NCBI GenBank assembly: GCA_037442925.1
Contig: JBBIPG010000045.1
Location: 1-19,325 of the forward strand
Length of the DNA stretch: 19,325 bases
Direction: 5' to 3'
DNA from: Candidatus Fraserbacteria bacterium
Lineage (GTDB): Bacteria > Bipolaricaulota > Bipolaricaulia > RBG-16-55-9
Made by a program: the position numbers. Positions 6,701 to 12,700 of the stretch are shown one piece after another (the stretch's first letter is position 1; the number at the start of each line of letters is the position of its first letter).

Positions 6701-9700
6701 TCAAAGAGTCCTTCCGCCTTCAATCGCTCTTTGAGTTTCTCGAAGGCCAGCTGCAGCTTGCCCAGACCGGCGGGTTTCATCCGACGCACTTCGAGCTGGT
6801 ACTTGCCCCGCGGACCATAGACTGTGACCATCCCCAGAGCCAGCACGTTCATGCCATCTTCGGGCTGAAAGTCAAGATATAGACTGAGCTGATTGAACAT
6901 GACGGCATTGATTTCCGAGGATTCATCTTTGAGAGTGAAATAGAGATGACCGGATGGATATTTACGAAAGTTGGAGATCTCCCCCTCGACCCAGATCTCC
7001 GGGAAGTTTACTTCCAGCAGTTCGCGCACAAGCTCGTTCAGTTGGGAGACGGTGTATAGATTGGGCTCATTCTCATCTCGGAAGGGGAGCTCGCGCATCT
7101 CTGCCATGGTGAGATGATGGTAATCCATCTCGAGGGGAAAGACAATGAACTCAGGACTTATGCAGACAGATGAAGGTTCCCTGCAGTCAAGCATCAAGCT
7201 AACTGCGAATTCTTTCTTTGCACTATCTCCTGCCTTCTAAACCGGCTTCTCACTACAGCCACCAGAGGAATATCCAGCACATTGAAAGCAATGAGAATAG
7301 CCAACACTAGCGCTATATCACGGTGGTCACTGGAGATGGCCAGCAGCATTGCAAGCACTAACGCAATCCAAGCATTGATGAAAGCAAGTGGCTTCCAGCG
7401 GAAGAGGGCGAGAGCGAAGAGAAACTCAAGGATGATCCCCAGGGTTAGCAAGGTCACTAGTCCCTCGGTAGAACGGAAGAAGACTTCGATAGTATCTACT
7501 GTCTCGATCGGCATAGTTATCTCTCTGCCCCTCCTTCCAACAGATTCTCTGACCCAGGCAATTTCAATGGCCGGTAGGATCGTTTCAGGAGAACAGCTAG
7601 GACCTGGAGCACTCCGAGAATGATGAGGATGATCGCTACTTTCGGATGGCCGTCCTCCAAGGCGAGAATAATCCATACGGAAAAGCCCACCAAAGAGCTG
7701 ATGGCTAGGCCTAAGGGAAGGAACTTGAGCCCGGGCAACCTCGCATAGCGAGTCATGCCTGGAACTACTTTGCCCCAATCCTTGAGAATCACCAGAAAGC
7801 CCACCGTTGCATGGATTACACCGAGACCAAGGAGAAGCCACCCTCCTATTGAAGAATGCATGAAGCTGGTCAATTCTATTCCGAATCACCCCTATGCTGG
7901 CACCGTTTAAGATGGGCCGGTCTAACTACTGCGCCTATAAATCTTTCGCAACTGGTAAATGTACGCTGCCAGGCTCGCGGTTGCCGAGATGAAGATGATA
8001 GTGGCGATGATCGGCTCTCCATCTACTATCGCCTTCACGCCAAACAAGACCGCTGCCAAGATCCCACCGATATTCGCGATCGAAAGCTTTAGTCGATATT
8101 GTTCTGGCACTTTGGGTAGAGTTCTCCAACCGTTAATGCAGGCAGCCAGCGCAGATCCCACACCAGCTCCTATATTGATCCAAGGATCCATTGGAGATCG
8201 CTTCCTCTCTCTAGCCACTACCCCTATGGATCTTCTTCAGTTGGTAGATGTACACTGCCAGGCTAGCGGTTGCCAAGAGGAAGAGGACGATTGCAATGAT
8301 TGTCTTTCCACCGATTTGCACCCTCAAACCCATCAAGACTGCTGCCAAGATCGCGCCGATGATCGCGATCGAAACTACCAGTCGATATTGTTCTGGCACC
8401 TTGGGCAAAGCCGTCCAACTATAAATGAAGGCAGCCAGCGCCATTAGGGCACCAGCTATGGCACTGAGCCAAGGTTGAAGCCAAGGCTGAAGCCACCAAG
8501 TCAGATCCATCGGAGATCACTCCCTCTAAGGCATCAGACATGGGGAGGTGGGACTACAACCACCTGTCGTTGACGATGGTGGCGGCGGTGGCGGCGGCGA
8601 GCCGCTCGTGCTACCACTTCCCTCGTTGTGACACGCTGTACAGTCAGCGACCGCCCCCCAGATGCCGAACGCCTCAGCCGCCAAGATCACCGCACAACCC
8701 CACAAACTAAAGACGCATCCAATCAGCGTCGTAGAGGTTACATATGCACCACTCACAGACGCGATGCAGCCAGTGCAGGCTGACGTGATCTGGGCCTGCA
8801 CCAATCCAGAGGAGGATACCGTCGACTCCAAGTCTGCCAGTTGTAACACATAGTCTCGATGGTCGCCTAACAACTGTGATACTCTGTTGCTCAGCCGTGG
8901 TAGCTCTTGGTCCATATCAGCTAGCTGGTTTTGGAGCCTCTGCCTACATCGCCTACCTCCTGCCTTTGTTAAGCACACTGGTTCACGCAGTCGCATTATG
9001 CAGTTACTTCTTCACCTGAATGAACTTCAACAGCATCGGGAGAATTGTCAGCAGCAGGAGCAAAAGGGCTGCAAACAAGATCGGGATAAAAGCGGAAGCG
9101 TTAGCAGGCAAAGCCAAACCCAAAAGCCACTCAATCAAAAAGAGAGCAGCAGCAGCTAGAACGACGAGGGGAAGGAGTGTCACGAACCGTTTCCGTAACT
9201 CTTGCGGTGCTTGACCTCCGGGGCTCTCTAAACGCCTCGCCTTATGCACAAAAGCTACACCGAAGCCCACAATTAGCGCGAGTATCGCCACAAGTTGAAT
9301 CATGAGGTTCATTCTATCAATATCAACAACAAGAGGGTAATCACACTCCCTAAGCTCATAATTCCCAATGTGATATTGACTGAGCGGAGAATCTCTAGTC
9401 TTTCCGTAAGCTTCTGCGAATCCGAGGTTTCTAACGACGAGATGATAGCCTGCCACCCCCCACCCACTTTCAACAAAAGGTAAAGAACAAAGAATTCGAA
9501 AAATAGTATCGCTGAAAAAGCCATGATTATTATATTGCGGAATTGAGCTTCCAGTTTGGGTATCAAAATATAAAGGCCAGCAGTAACAAGAACAGCAAGT
9601 ATCAAAGGTTGGAACAACGAAATCCTAATGATCTGCTTTCTCAAATTGTACAAGGGGCTCACACTCCTCTCTCGGCCTGCTAGCTAGGGAGCAAGATCGC

Positions 9701-12700
9701 ATGGTATTCTGTATTTAACATACGTACAAACGGCCCGACAAGTGAAGAGCCCATATGCTATCGCACCTAAACAAACAATCTCGCCAATGGGAGTGGGTTC
9801 AGCGAATGCTACCAGACAAGCTGCACCTGCTTGTGCGCCTAACCATCCGCAGACTGTGCTGCAGACTAACACATTAACGGTACAGTAGACGACATCGTCT
9901 TGTTGACCAGAGACCGGATATAACCTGAGTGACTCGATACGCCCCTTCAGCACAGCTGCTAGGCCAAGCCTATCAATCTTCGCAAGGACTTCTTGCCTAT
10001 CTTGGTCGGTGAACTCTACACCTTCTAATAACACTTCCCGCAATATCTGTGTGTACGGATTATTGACTTCTCCAAGTTCTTCTAAGTCTCGAAGCGCTTC
10101 ATCATGGAACGGGGCAGGAGGTAGTACTGGGGAGCTCAAAGAGTTGATTATTGACTCTGCTTTCCTATCAAATTCAGCTGTAAGGCCGACCCTCTCGTAG
10201 TGATCTACCATCTTTAGTGATAGCTCCCTTACCGTATCGATTTGGGCTTGGAGGTCGACAGGAGGGTGTAGTATCTCTTCTCGTTTGAGGTGGATAAGTC
10301 TTTTGAGAAGTGCTTTCTGGGATTTCATTACAAGTTTTAGGAATTGGGCATCAAGACCCAAATCCTTGCCTTTCGCTTGAGCCGCAAGTTGCAGTTGCCC
10401 ACCAGCTGAGATCGGGTCTTTGTATGTACCATCTACACATCCCGTCAACCCGCCCAGCGCCACCAGCCCCGTCCCGACTCCCATCGCTCGCAGCACTTGC
10501 CTGCGGCTCAATCTAACCCGACCTTCCTTTACCTCTTCGTATGTTTCCTTGCCGCAACACATGACTTGTACCTCCTTCTTTGGCGAACTTCAAGTCCACC
10601 GGTAAGGTAAGGTAAGGTAAGGTAAGGTAAGGTAAGGTAAGGTAAGGTAAGGTAAGGATAACACAGATCTATCACTTTGTCAAGATCCTAAACAGTCATA
10701 TTAGAATGGTGAGATCCCCCAAATCTCTAGGTATAGTATGTGAGCAACTCTACTCCATCTTCGGTGATCAGAATCATATCACTGTGGCAATAGCCTGCTT
10801 GAACAACAACAGGTAGGGTTAAGCGAAGATCAAGCGCCCCTTCGGTTCAGGGACGGGGCGCCCCAGCGCTTTTGCTGTCTCAATCCACTCTTGTGCGATC
10901 ACCTCAACATTCTTCAAAGCTTCTTGATATGTCTTACCATCCGCCATGCAGCCAGGCAATTCTGGAATCTCTGCAATGAATTCCTCATCTTCCTCACTCC
11001 AATAGATGATCACTTCATAACGCATCATCATTACTTCGTAAGATTCGCTCCAGAAGCTTATCGCATCGTTCCACGCCAGATTATACTCCCCAGTAACGCG
11101 CATTGTCACCTCATCGATCTGATTTCGCCAACTTGAACTTGACCAAGTGTATCATTATTGATACGATGGTGTGTGCCCAATCAACGGAAGCGGCTCCCAG
11201 CAGTTTTCTTTAGAACTGCGACGGGACGTGAACCTGTGCGGGATTGGCTGAGGAAGCTAGATAAGGAAGATCGGCGTGTGATTGGTGTTGATATTAAGAC
11301 GGTCGAGTTCGGGTGGCCCGTGGGAATGCCCGTATGCAAATCCGTAGGAAAGGGAATATGGGAAGTGCGGAGTAACTTGACAAGGAACAGAATTGCCCGT
11401 GTGTTGTTTTGTATTTGGGAAGGGCAGATGATCTTGCTGCATGGATTCATGAAGAAATCAAGAAAGATTCCAAAGGCTGATTTGGATCTGGCAAGGGAGC
11501 GCAAGTCCCAATTGAAGGAGGGATAACAATGGACAAGAATCGGCACATAGGCTCGTCATTCGATGAGTTCCTTGAAGAGGAGGGCCTTCGTACCAAAGCT
11601 GAAGAAATAGCCGCCAAAAGGGTTCTGGCATGGCAGATTGAGAAATCCATGGAGGAGAAACATCTCTCGAAGACTGATATGGCAAAGGCTATGAAGACGA
11701 GCAGAGCAGCTCTTGACCGCTTGCTAGACCCTGAGAACGGTTCAGTTACGCTTCAGACGCTGGAGCGCGCAGCAGCAGCGGTTGGCAAACGTCTGCACAT
11801 TCAGTTAGTAGATGTGAGAAACCGAAGTTGTGAAGAGTAGGACTGGTATTCAGCCAGCGATGTTCTCAGCATCAAGGCGAACGAGCTCCGTCCCCGCCTG
11901 CCCTTCCAGCGCCTCTTGGGCACAATCAAGAGATGTAATGATCACTCGCGAGCCACCATTCTCCAAGAAGCGAATCGCGGCCTCAATCTTCGGTCCCATG
12001 CTCCCCGGCGGAAATTCCCCAGCTGCCAGATAGCGCTTGGCTTCCTCAAGAGAAAGTCTTTCCAGATCGACTTGCTCCGGTGTCCCAAAGCGCAAGGCCA
12101 CGCGCTCGACGTCCGTAAGAATCATCAATACTTGTGCTCCGAGAGCACTGGCAAGACGCTCAGATGCTAGATCTTTATCAATCACGGCCTCCACACCCCG
12201 AAGTTGTCCATCCTCGCAGATCACCGGCACACCACCCCCGCCGCAAGCAATCACTACATGCCCTGCCTCCATAAGACCGCGAATGACCTTCCACTCGACG
12301 ATTTCGCTGGGTTGAGGCGAGGGAACCACACGCCGATAGGCTCGATGGCCGTTGCCCACCCGCTTCACGACATAGCCTCTGCTTTCGTGCAGCCACTCCG
12401 CCTCGCTCTTGGAATAGAAGGGACCAACGGGTTTTGTGGGATCACGAAACGCCGGATCATTTGGATCTACCACGACTTGGGTGATCACTGTTGCTGCACA
12501 GGTCATCAGCCCTTCCCAGCGCAGGGCCTGTACGAGCGCTTGCTGAAGAAGATAGCCAATCTGACCCTGCGTCATGGCATCGCACACATCGAGCGGCAAG
12601 GGCGGAACGAGATCTTTCGCCTGCTCCTGTTGAATGAGTAGTTGTCCCACTTGCGGCCCATTGCCATGGGTGAGCACAACTCGACTACCGCTCTTCACGA

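Follow-up and report, generated by a model that had tools for sequence, protein, structure and literature searches.

The window, that is, the whole 19,325-nt stretch that we analysed (contig JBBIPG010000045.1 of Candidatus Fraserbacteria bacterium), holds a single operon. It packs together a Tat-lipoprotein precursor of 292 aa whose hydrophobic core has 8 Cys, the headless remnant of another precursor and six small membrane genes, m1 to m6 (98-118 aa, each with 2-4 hydrophobic segments), and the gaps between genes are -8 to 48 nt (Table 1). The array of an orphan and six membrane genes described in the initial annotation is thus present, with the orphan at 8526-8996. A 231-aa ORF at m6 was rejected as an upstream over-call, the real start being at 7514. 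X1 contigs from the sequencing run, which are not independent of the window assembly, span 7430-10587 unbroken, with 0 differences and no joints.

Table 1. Features of the cassette in the window, in the order of transcription, preceded by the neighbouring gene remnant.
Feature	Position	Strand	Remarks
Xaa-Pro peptidase gene, 3'-end remnant	10690..10800	-	same gene lies beside the sister header at the C56 end
Sigma-70-type promoter-like site	10655..10683	-	TTGACA, 17 nt, TATCCT, TG extension; heads the cassette
(CTTAC)11 repeat	10602..10656	-	at the predicted transcript start
5' UTR	10563..10601	-	conserved; hairpin and strong Shine-Dalgarno
Common leader, residues 1-42	10437..10562	-	MCCG extension, twin-Arg signal, lipobox Cys
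Type A precursor, 292 aa	9684..10562	-	leader, Cys-free helical pro-domain, junction, core
Type A putative cleavage motif V-S-G/Q (residues 217-220) and core	9684..9914	-	cleavage before Q predicted; low-confidence model
m1, 117 aa, 3 hydrophobic segments	9309..9662	-	putative immunity to type A core
m2, 102 aa, 4 hydrophobic segments	9004..9312	-	putative immunity; start overlaps m1 stop
Headless type B precursor remnant	8526..8996	-	VQAQ junction, 8-Cys core, Pro-rich tail
m3, 99-aa membrane protein	8211..8510	-	tandem duplicate with m4 (74% DNA, 59% protein)
m4, at most 98 aa	7922..8218	-	m3 duplicate; weak relation to m5 family
m5, 118 aa	7517..7873	-	family occurs behind type B cores
m6, 106 aa	7194..7514	-	m5 paralog

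The precursor at 9684-10562(-) has the twin-Arg signal and lipobox (Cys42) originally ascribed to it, with a sub-threshold match to Pfam TAT_signal (E 0.018). Further copies lie at C56:65, C43:244 and C43:1587, and the leader recurs at C47:18128, all as first annotated (C numbers denote contigs, G numbers genomes, with G000 the present one); leader matches at G026:C79 and G014:C2:57778 proved false, both being substrate-binding proteins. What these copies have in common is a near-identical header, comprising the promoter, (CTTAC)n, ribosome-binding site, Tat signal and lipobox, which sits on at least three unrelated precursor bodies; the idea of a single multi-copy family therefore holds for the Tat leader but not for what follows it, and DNA similarity among leader copies stops at the Cys codon. 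Of the five (CTTAC)n arrays in the genome, four lie next to this header. The promoter-like site matches 10 of 12 positions, and its weight rests on conservation, the sister copies being preceded by the same arrangement, because the region holds 6 such sites against 5.4 expected by chance. Between G000:C47 and G032:C7, which belong to different genera, the headers are 96.8-97.5% identical and the flanks 70-80%; in G020 the pentamer differs from CTTAC. The Xaa-Pro peptidase remnant upstream is a footprint of header copying.

Beyond the leader, the profiles of precursor types A and B align nowhere. The window orphan and the C47 copy both belong to the beta-rich type B, which has 8 invariant Cys (10/10 alignment rows) and is unrelated to the helical type A at 9684, so neither can be counted among copies of a helical family, and the orphan is the remnant of a different precursor rather than a swap-ready core for the one upstream. 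It covers the last 150 of ~346 type B profile positions (E 1.6e-44, with a profile that includes it), has no signal peptide and has a weak ribosome-binding site. Types C and D occur at G002:C43 and G000:C22, respectively. Whole precursors measure 239 to 419 aa, a wider range than the 230-320 aa first reported.

Pro-regions are almost without Cys and cores are hydrophobic, with a net charge of 0 to -12 in most sequences, and hence not cationic; the type A core has 8 Cys and a net charge of 0. Its helical hairpin appears in a low-confidence model (mean pLDDT 59, core 39-56), the repeat prediction falling short of the 78 given previously, and the type B model reaches a mean of 72, with core helices at 85-91. 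Searches confined to solved structures returned generic four-helix bundles for type A (best Z 8.8, rmsd 3.0, 110 aligned) and generic beta sheets for type B (best Z 6.2, rmsd 4.1, 122 aligned), and Foldseek found no solved structure for type B at E 0.001; these outcomes rule out no family. The core, initially called hypervariable, is indeed the more variable part in some pairs (pro/core identity 86/62 and 65/50%), whereas close orthologs keep it better than the pro-region (93/98, 85/94 and 71/91%) and the type B Cys pattern does not vary. Likewise, a VxAQ-like junction is real but partial: the motif [VILA]x[AG][QH] occurs in 21/42 sequences, which are related and non-independent, against ~6.5% expected per window, and is absent from the other 21. 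As a possible genome-wide motif for the shedding of lipoproteins, the pattern [LVI]x[AP]Q was found among lipoproteins in 11/28 against 183/1475, but 7 of those 11 come from one paralog family, so that this idea gains no clear support.

By profile, precursors are present in 12/35 genomes of the order, with G002 and G020 added by other routes, and in 0/149 other genomes of the phylum; the earlier count of 5 of 35, obtained with one query, was too narrow. Cluster counts of 24 and 104 were not recovered, ours being 11, 17 (among 8000 candidates that were scored) and 27, and the ESM Atlas gave unnamed clusters alone (0.76-0.77) in place of a halocin C8 cluster at 0.78. A metagenome scan found 1 locus and a plasmid search with type B had no match. 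In a literature search covering few subscription papers, no paper joined Fraserbacteria with bacteriocins or Bipolaricaulota with toxin and Tat, and the titles listed for Fraserbacteria were on other subjects.

All 32 downstream genes compared have 2-7 hydrophobic segments, against 68/1972 crude gene calls, a comparison in which the 32 were hand-picked as the next gene(s) and the background set was under-called. Their families co-vary with core type: a reverse search of the order with the m6 family gave 6/6 matches behind a hydrophobic Cys core that was either whole or broken. At G002:C43, an SdpI gene (PF13630, 55 bits, cut-off 28) lies directly behind an 8-Cys-core precursor that bears the repeat and the MCCG-Tat-lipobox leader. 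It is the sole such locus met, SdpI being absent from the window and the other scanned loci and present in just 4/35 order genomes; the present genome's own SdpI gene (C8:37313) adjoins no precursor. Searches of m1-m6 against known immunity families gave no match, m1 has no relative among the 32 downstream genes, a complex prediction for a type B core with its two partners gave no answer (score 0.01), and at G008:C142 no immunity-like gene stands between precursor and peptidase.

Modules turn over at a fixed site. Beside the same carbamate kinase gene, G032 shows the same order with different modules, namely a type A precursor, a partner and a type B orphan both unlike those here, and then m5/m6, and m5 is the oldest layer, common to both genomes at background identity. 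The cassette in the window is probably built of three layers: type A with m1/m2 as the newest, the type B remnant with m3/m4, and finally m5/m6, which have lost their precursor. By hand scoring, a broken or absent precursor accompanies an open membrane gene in 14 loci and the reverse holds in 1 (binomial p 0.005-0.035, with the length shares assumed), a count that is overstated because metagenome frameshifts may be errors and the loci are related; G032:C3 is a fifteenth such locus. In the reverse case, C43:1587, the broken partner is matched by an intact copy (88% identity) at C18, which lies behind a riboswitch of its own. C-terminal modules that stand as orphans, each followed by genes of its own, occur in the window (8526-8996) and on contigs C31, C3 and C16 of G032. 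They are not ready-made swap cassettes, because they break at different profile positions (166 and 199) and no junction or att-like repeat common to them was found.

A more speculative possibility, which we hold only tentatively, is that the header may be a mobile 250-bp unit that moves between genera by recombination, without an integrase, and picks up unrelated toxin bodies, so that new toxin-immunity modules would join at the promoter end and older ones would become an immunity archive. The repeat might then pair with the Shine-Dalgarno and early coding sequence as a slippage-set switch of toxin translation; the fold z for such anti-SD pairing was -2.1 and -2.8 in the window copy and -0.9, -0.1 and +0.75 in three G032 copies.

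The genome encodes TatC, two Lgt, LspA, two S26 peptidases, DsbB and a DsbA-type thioredoxin. In relatives, S26 peptidase paralogs follow precursors (two loci in G008, and G012), one precursor carries a PT-HINT domain (E 1.7e-17), and in the present genome no S26 gene adjoins the loci; behind the C47 cassette lies a CPBP protease. We consider it likely that the whole is a polymorphic bacteriocin-immunity system, in which killing, cleavage and immunity are predicted functions. The polymorphic antimicrobial and immunity reading of the original proposal gains real support from the SdpI gene, the co-variation of core and membrane gene, the asymmetric decay, and the S26 and PT-HINT associations in relatives.

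In such a system, the precursor would fold in the cytoplasm, with the pro-domain shielding the hydrophobic hairpin, and would leave by Tat to be lipid-anchored at Cys42 and receive disulfides from DsbA/DsbB. A cut at the V/L-x-A/G-Q junction, before Q and most likely by a signal-peptidase-I-type enzyme, would free a neutral-to-acidic, disulfide-stapled hairpin of 40-90 residues that may damage the membrane of close relatives, probably via a receptor, and the small membrane genes behind each precursor would neutralise their own core. Recombination would bring new precursor-immunity modules behind the conserved header, and the older precursor would be truncated or lost while its immunity genes were kept under the same promoter.

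The same cognate co-variation would be expected if the core were a non-lethal peptide serving as a signal or as a tag for kin recognition, with the small membrane proteins as its receptors, and the neutral or acidic cores, the signalling role that SdpI has besides immunity, and the regulatory surroundings all fit this account. A c-di-GMP-I riboswitch does precede the C43 pair (C43:62-154, 70 bits), as first noted, and Crp-family genes lie upstream in G001, G012, G014 and G030; the riboswitch is, however, 1 of 17 in the genome, so that a special role for it gains no support and we rejected it as a defining part. We regard a signal as unlikely, since the partners lack a signalling domain and have no kinase or regulator behind them, the many partners kept after precursor loss are a better fit with protection, and the PT-HINT fusion also speaks against it. 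The precursors might instead be variable surface lipoproteins in which the hairpin is an unreleased second anchor or adhesion module, the membrane genes are assembly helpers, and variation evades phage or predators. The lipobox, the occurrence of the type C N-terminal domain also in large surface lipoproteins of 12 genomes, the mostly secreted or surface products of the other riboswitch-led genes in this genome, and a length-variable repeat suggestive of phase variation speak for this, yet helpers would not be expected to persist, or to acquire their own promoter (as at G030:C49 and C18), once the precursor is lost, the exposed pro-domain is not consistently the variable part, and an SdpI partner is out of place; we judge it rather improbable.

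No core matched a bacteriocin model or recognised toxin domain above cut-off, and isolated cores had no match at E up to 10. The halocin C8 domain (TIGR04449) was found in 0/184 phylum genomes and the HalI-like family (PF22862) in 0/1, the present genome, at E up to 1, in keeping with the lack of a halocin match first reported, and toxin_SdpC (TIGR04032) in 0/35 order genomes; Haloferax and B. subtilis controls matched. Because these models do not match, the system would work like halocin C8 or SdpC but is probably a member of neither family, and the C8 link of the initial annotation is one of architecture alone. With ProC8 it shares a Tat precursor of ~280 aa, an N-terminal pro-region and a C-terminal Cys-rich peptide, which in ProC8 is released by a protease that a preprint lists as still unknown (bioRxiv 10.64898/2026.07.27.741052). 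Here, in contrast, the precursors bear a lipobox, their pro-domains are of several unrelated kinds, the membrane partners have genes of their own, some layers consist of orphans or of immunity genes only, and the header DNA is common. That the precursors are drifted true C8 homologs, with the pro-domain as a HalI-like immunity domain and the core as the C8 peptide, is very unlikely despite the Tat signal, similar size, Cys-rich C-terminus and the bacterial C8 homologs that, as that preprint reports, retain the HalI-like fold although Pfam does not match them, given the empty searches, three unrelated bodies that cannot all come from HalI, partner genes and a lipobox unlike ProC8, and halT ABC genes not seen.

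To return to the bacteriocin-immunity reading, Bacillus SdpC/SdpI likewise pairs a secreted killing-factor precursor with an immunity membrane protein, and one locus here has a true SdpI. The C-terminal peptide of SdpC is hydrophobic and disulfide-bonded. The present loci differ in Tat export, the lipid anchor, the absence of visible SdpA/SdpB/SdpR neighbours and polymorphic multi-copy arrays. SitA/SitI of myxobacteria also comprise non-homologous lipoprotein toxin families of one architecture with a downstream immunity gene (PMC8546572), but SitA requires TraAB exchange and reaches the cytoplasm, whereas the payload here is a Cys-stapled hydrophobic peptide with Tat export and membrane-protein partners. 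MafB, CDI and Rhs systems show a full-length gene followed by orphan C-termini and immunity genes, with Hint/BIL domains (PMC4287609), and S8-PTS loci hold a dedicated peptidase (PMC9424270). The loci described here have what polymorphic toxins have in general, namely a constant N-terminal export part with a variable payload, a co-varying downstream gene and orphan modules. In MafB, CDI, Rhs and S8-PTS, however, it is the tip that is exchanged on an N-terminal body that stays constant; here, the constant part is a 42-residue leader with its promoter, the whole body changes, and the payload is not an enzyme.

If this reading is true, an uncultured diderm order would possess a previously undescribed arsenal of dozens of distinct disulfide-stapled, non-cationic hairpin peptides with four pro-domain types and at least six unnamed immunity families, outside current bacteriocin models, and would have reached polymorphic toxins by a different route, the swap of everything after the signal peptide. 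How large bacteriocin precursors such as those of halocin C8 and SdpC may be cleaved is a question to which the recurrent junction motif, combined with the S26 peptidases linked to the loci, suggests a testable answer.

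Within the window, eight closely spaced minus-strand genes lead into xseA; their GC content, 50%, is lower than the 55% of the flanking DNA, and none of the eight proteins rises above a family cut-off in Pfam or NCBIfam. The paralogs listed in the initial annotation are present in the genome (G000), but its single multi-copy family is not supported: the orphan remnant and the frameshifted copy on contig C47 belong to a second precursor type, B. A search with the window precursor (type A) matched 11 proteins, six of which are alike only over the first 9-15%; these leader-only matches are type B. 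The type A model is all-helical, and that of type B (mean pLDDT 72) runs from a seven-stranded beta sheet through helices to a helical hairpin, with 8 Cys invariant in 10/10 rows. Alignment between the two profiles is confined to the leader.

Features of the cassette, its surroundings and related loci (window coordinates unless a genome and contig are named)
Feature	Position	Strand	Description
Cassette	10562 to 7194	-	292-aa precursor, m1, m2, 156-aa remnant, m3-m6 (small membrane genes), then xseA
Leader	10437-10562	-	conserved Met-Cys-Cys-Gly extension before twin-Arg motif
Carbamate kinase to header	10819-11840		gene for a HicB-like protein; toxin-antitoxin pair (Gp49-like, HTH)
Small ORFs	17670-17985		two, hydrophobic, ahead of protease gene
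Protease gene	18027-19290		Trypsin-like/Nal1-type, then short ORF at contig end
NYN-domain gene	4681-5662		with possible integrase fragment, adjoining tRNA 4484-4557
L164	G000:C22:28668-29951		273-aa Tat-lipoprotein precursor, VYAQ junction, 16-Cys tail, then 128-aa membrane gene
L037	G008:C142:1703-2962		type A precursor, Pro-rich linker, C-terminal pretoxin-Hint domain, then S26 paralog
SdpI-family gene	G000:C8:37313-37660		stand-alone, integrase-like gene nearby, no adjoining precursor
Immunity-like gene	G000:C18:25660-25968		lone membrane gene, own riboswitch; broken twin behind C43:1587 precursor

A DNA-pattern search for the header repeat brought up a third kind of body (type C) in a relative (G002:C43), which carries the same repeat and MCCG-Tat-lipobox leader in front and whose N-terminal domain also occurs in surface lipoproteins of 12/184 genomes. 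A composition scan of G000 yielded a fourth Tat-lipoprotein precursor (C22:29130), without the header; the proteins of this locus, L164, have no family match. Elsewhere, G020:C16 (L169) encodes a Tat precursor without a lipobox and an m6-like partner, with another pentamer repeat ahead of the RBS. Two proteins, P0038 and P0039, are labelled Candidatus Caldarchaeum yet closely resemble a G004 protein: they were mis-binned, or else the gene passed into an archaeon.

The header itself may be mobile. In the window it places a promoter-like site, the repeat (CTTAC)11, a hairpin and then a strong RBS ahead of the precursor. Arrays of at least three units occur in 5/184 phylum genomes, and repeat number ranges from 2 to 11; in G000 four of five arrays border the header, and those of G032, G030 and G002 precede precursors or, in one case, a lone partner gene. 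Matches in G093 and at G000:C9 are unrelated to it. Leader DNA of the G000 and G032 copies is 77-97% identical and falls to noise level (47-55%) past the lipobox Cys. Between G000:C47 and G032:C7 the header is 97.5% identical across 161 nt, in syntenic flanks of 70-80% identity and with bodies below 33%. Since the window leader diverges by 14-20% from two sister leaders, its sites seem free to vary, and recent transfer of the header between C47 and C7 is the simpler reading. The window header also brings the tail of a peptidase gene that borders the header copy at the end of C56, and contig C67 connects to C56 immediately behind the C56 cassette, as would be expected of an empty allele. Titled records that share this header go under the names Candidatus Fraserbacteria and Candidatus Bipolaricaulota.

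Cargo changes at a fixed site. Beside carbamate kinase in G032 (C31), the type A precursor has another core, and the partner and type B orphan that come next also differ from those of the window; then follow m5 and m6, whose identity to the window's is at background level (78%), and a further leader. Comparison of the two sites therefore suggests a layered order, newest at the promoter and oldest (m5/m6) at the far end. Orphan remnants begin at differing points, so they seem to be truncation scars, which disfavours standard swap cassettes. As a side observation, the window's HicB-like, Gp49-like and HTH genes are missing from the G032 site, and G032 has hicA/hicB fragments upstream of two leader remnants.

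All 32 hand-picked downstream genes have 2-7 hydrophobic segments, and their families track core type: m5/m6 behind type B, a 91-103 aa family with CxxC-turn-CxxC cores, one of 213-232 aa, and a signal-peptide, Gly-rich one of 128-198 aa. A reverse search with m6 gave six matches, spread over 4/35 genomes, and each of them lies behind a core, whole or broken. Directly behind the G002 type C precursor lies an SdpI-family gene; sdpRI is, according to PMC10458515, the immunity operon for the SdpC killing factor. The partner is open and the precursor broken or absent at 14 loci and the reverse holds at one, in a hand count weakened by assembly errors and kinship that leaves aside contig-end loci (L071, two G032 leaders, G008:C171) and the uncertain G014:C20. 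For the single reverse locus (C43:1587), a whole copy of the broken partner exists elsewhere under its own riboswitch.

Pro-regions are almost without Cys; cores mostly have 4, 6 or 8 and are neutral or acidic. Ahead of the core, 21 of 42 sequences carry [VILA]x[AG][QH], a motif that resembles the signal peptidase I rule for positions -3 and -1. Additional S26 paralogs follow the precursor at three loci, and a CPBP protease lies behind C47. G000 encodes TatC, Lgt, LspA, two S26, DsbB, a DsbA-type protein and Omp85 proteins, and no VKOR. Because P0029 and P0039 end in a linker similar to that of L037 and an apparent Hint start, the Pro-rich tail seen in type B could be what remains of a Hint junction. 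Crp-family genes lie upstream of four loci in relatives. The 2-Mb G000 has 17 c-di-GMP-I riboswitches, chiefly before genes for secreted or surface proteins and for two Crp-like regulators.

The halocin C8-like system initially proposed stands as to its Tat precursor with Cys-rich tail, a likeness to halocin C8 as described in bioRxiv 10.64898/2026.07.27.741052, but the cassette system fails the halocin C8 models and, likewise, the SdpC model, with working controls for each. Its header cassettes can be likened to SdpC/SdpI in mode of working; MafB (PMC4287609) and SitA loci (PMC8546572) are similarly organised, and S8-PTS (PMC9424270) is compared among such toxin systems. The haloarchaeal peptide of PMC12893001, which is N-terminal, is dissimilar. 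Unlike in halocin C8, SdpC/SdpI, MafB and SitA, the constant part here is only the promoter and 42-residue leader, and no description of this system turned up in the literature searched. On our best reading, it is probably a real, order-restricted polymorphic bacteriocin-immunity system of putative activity.
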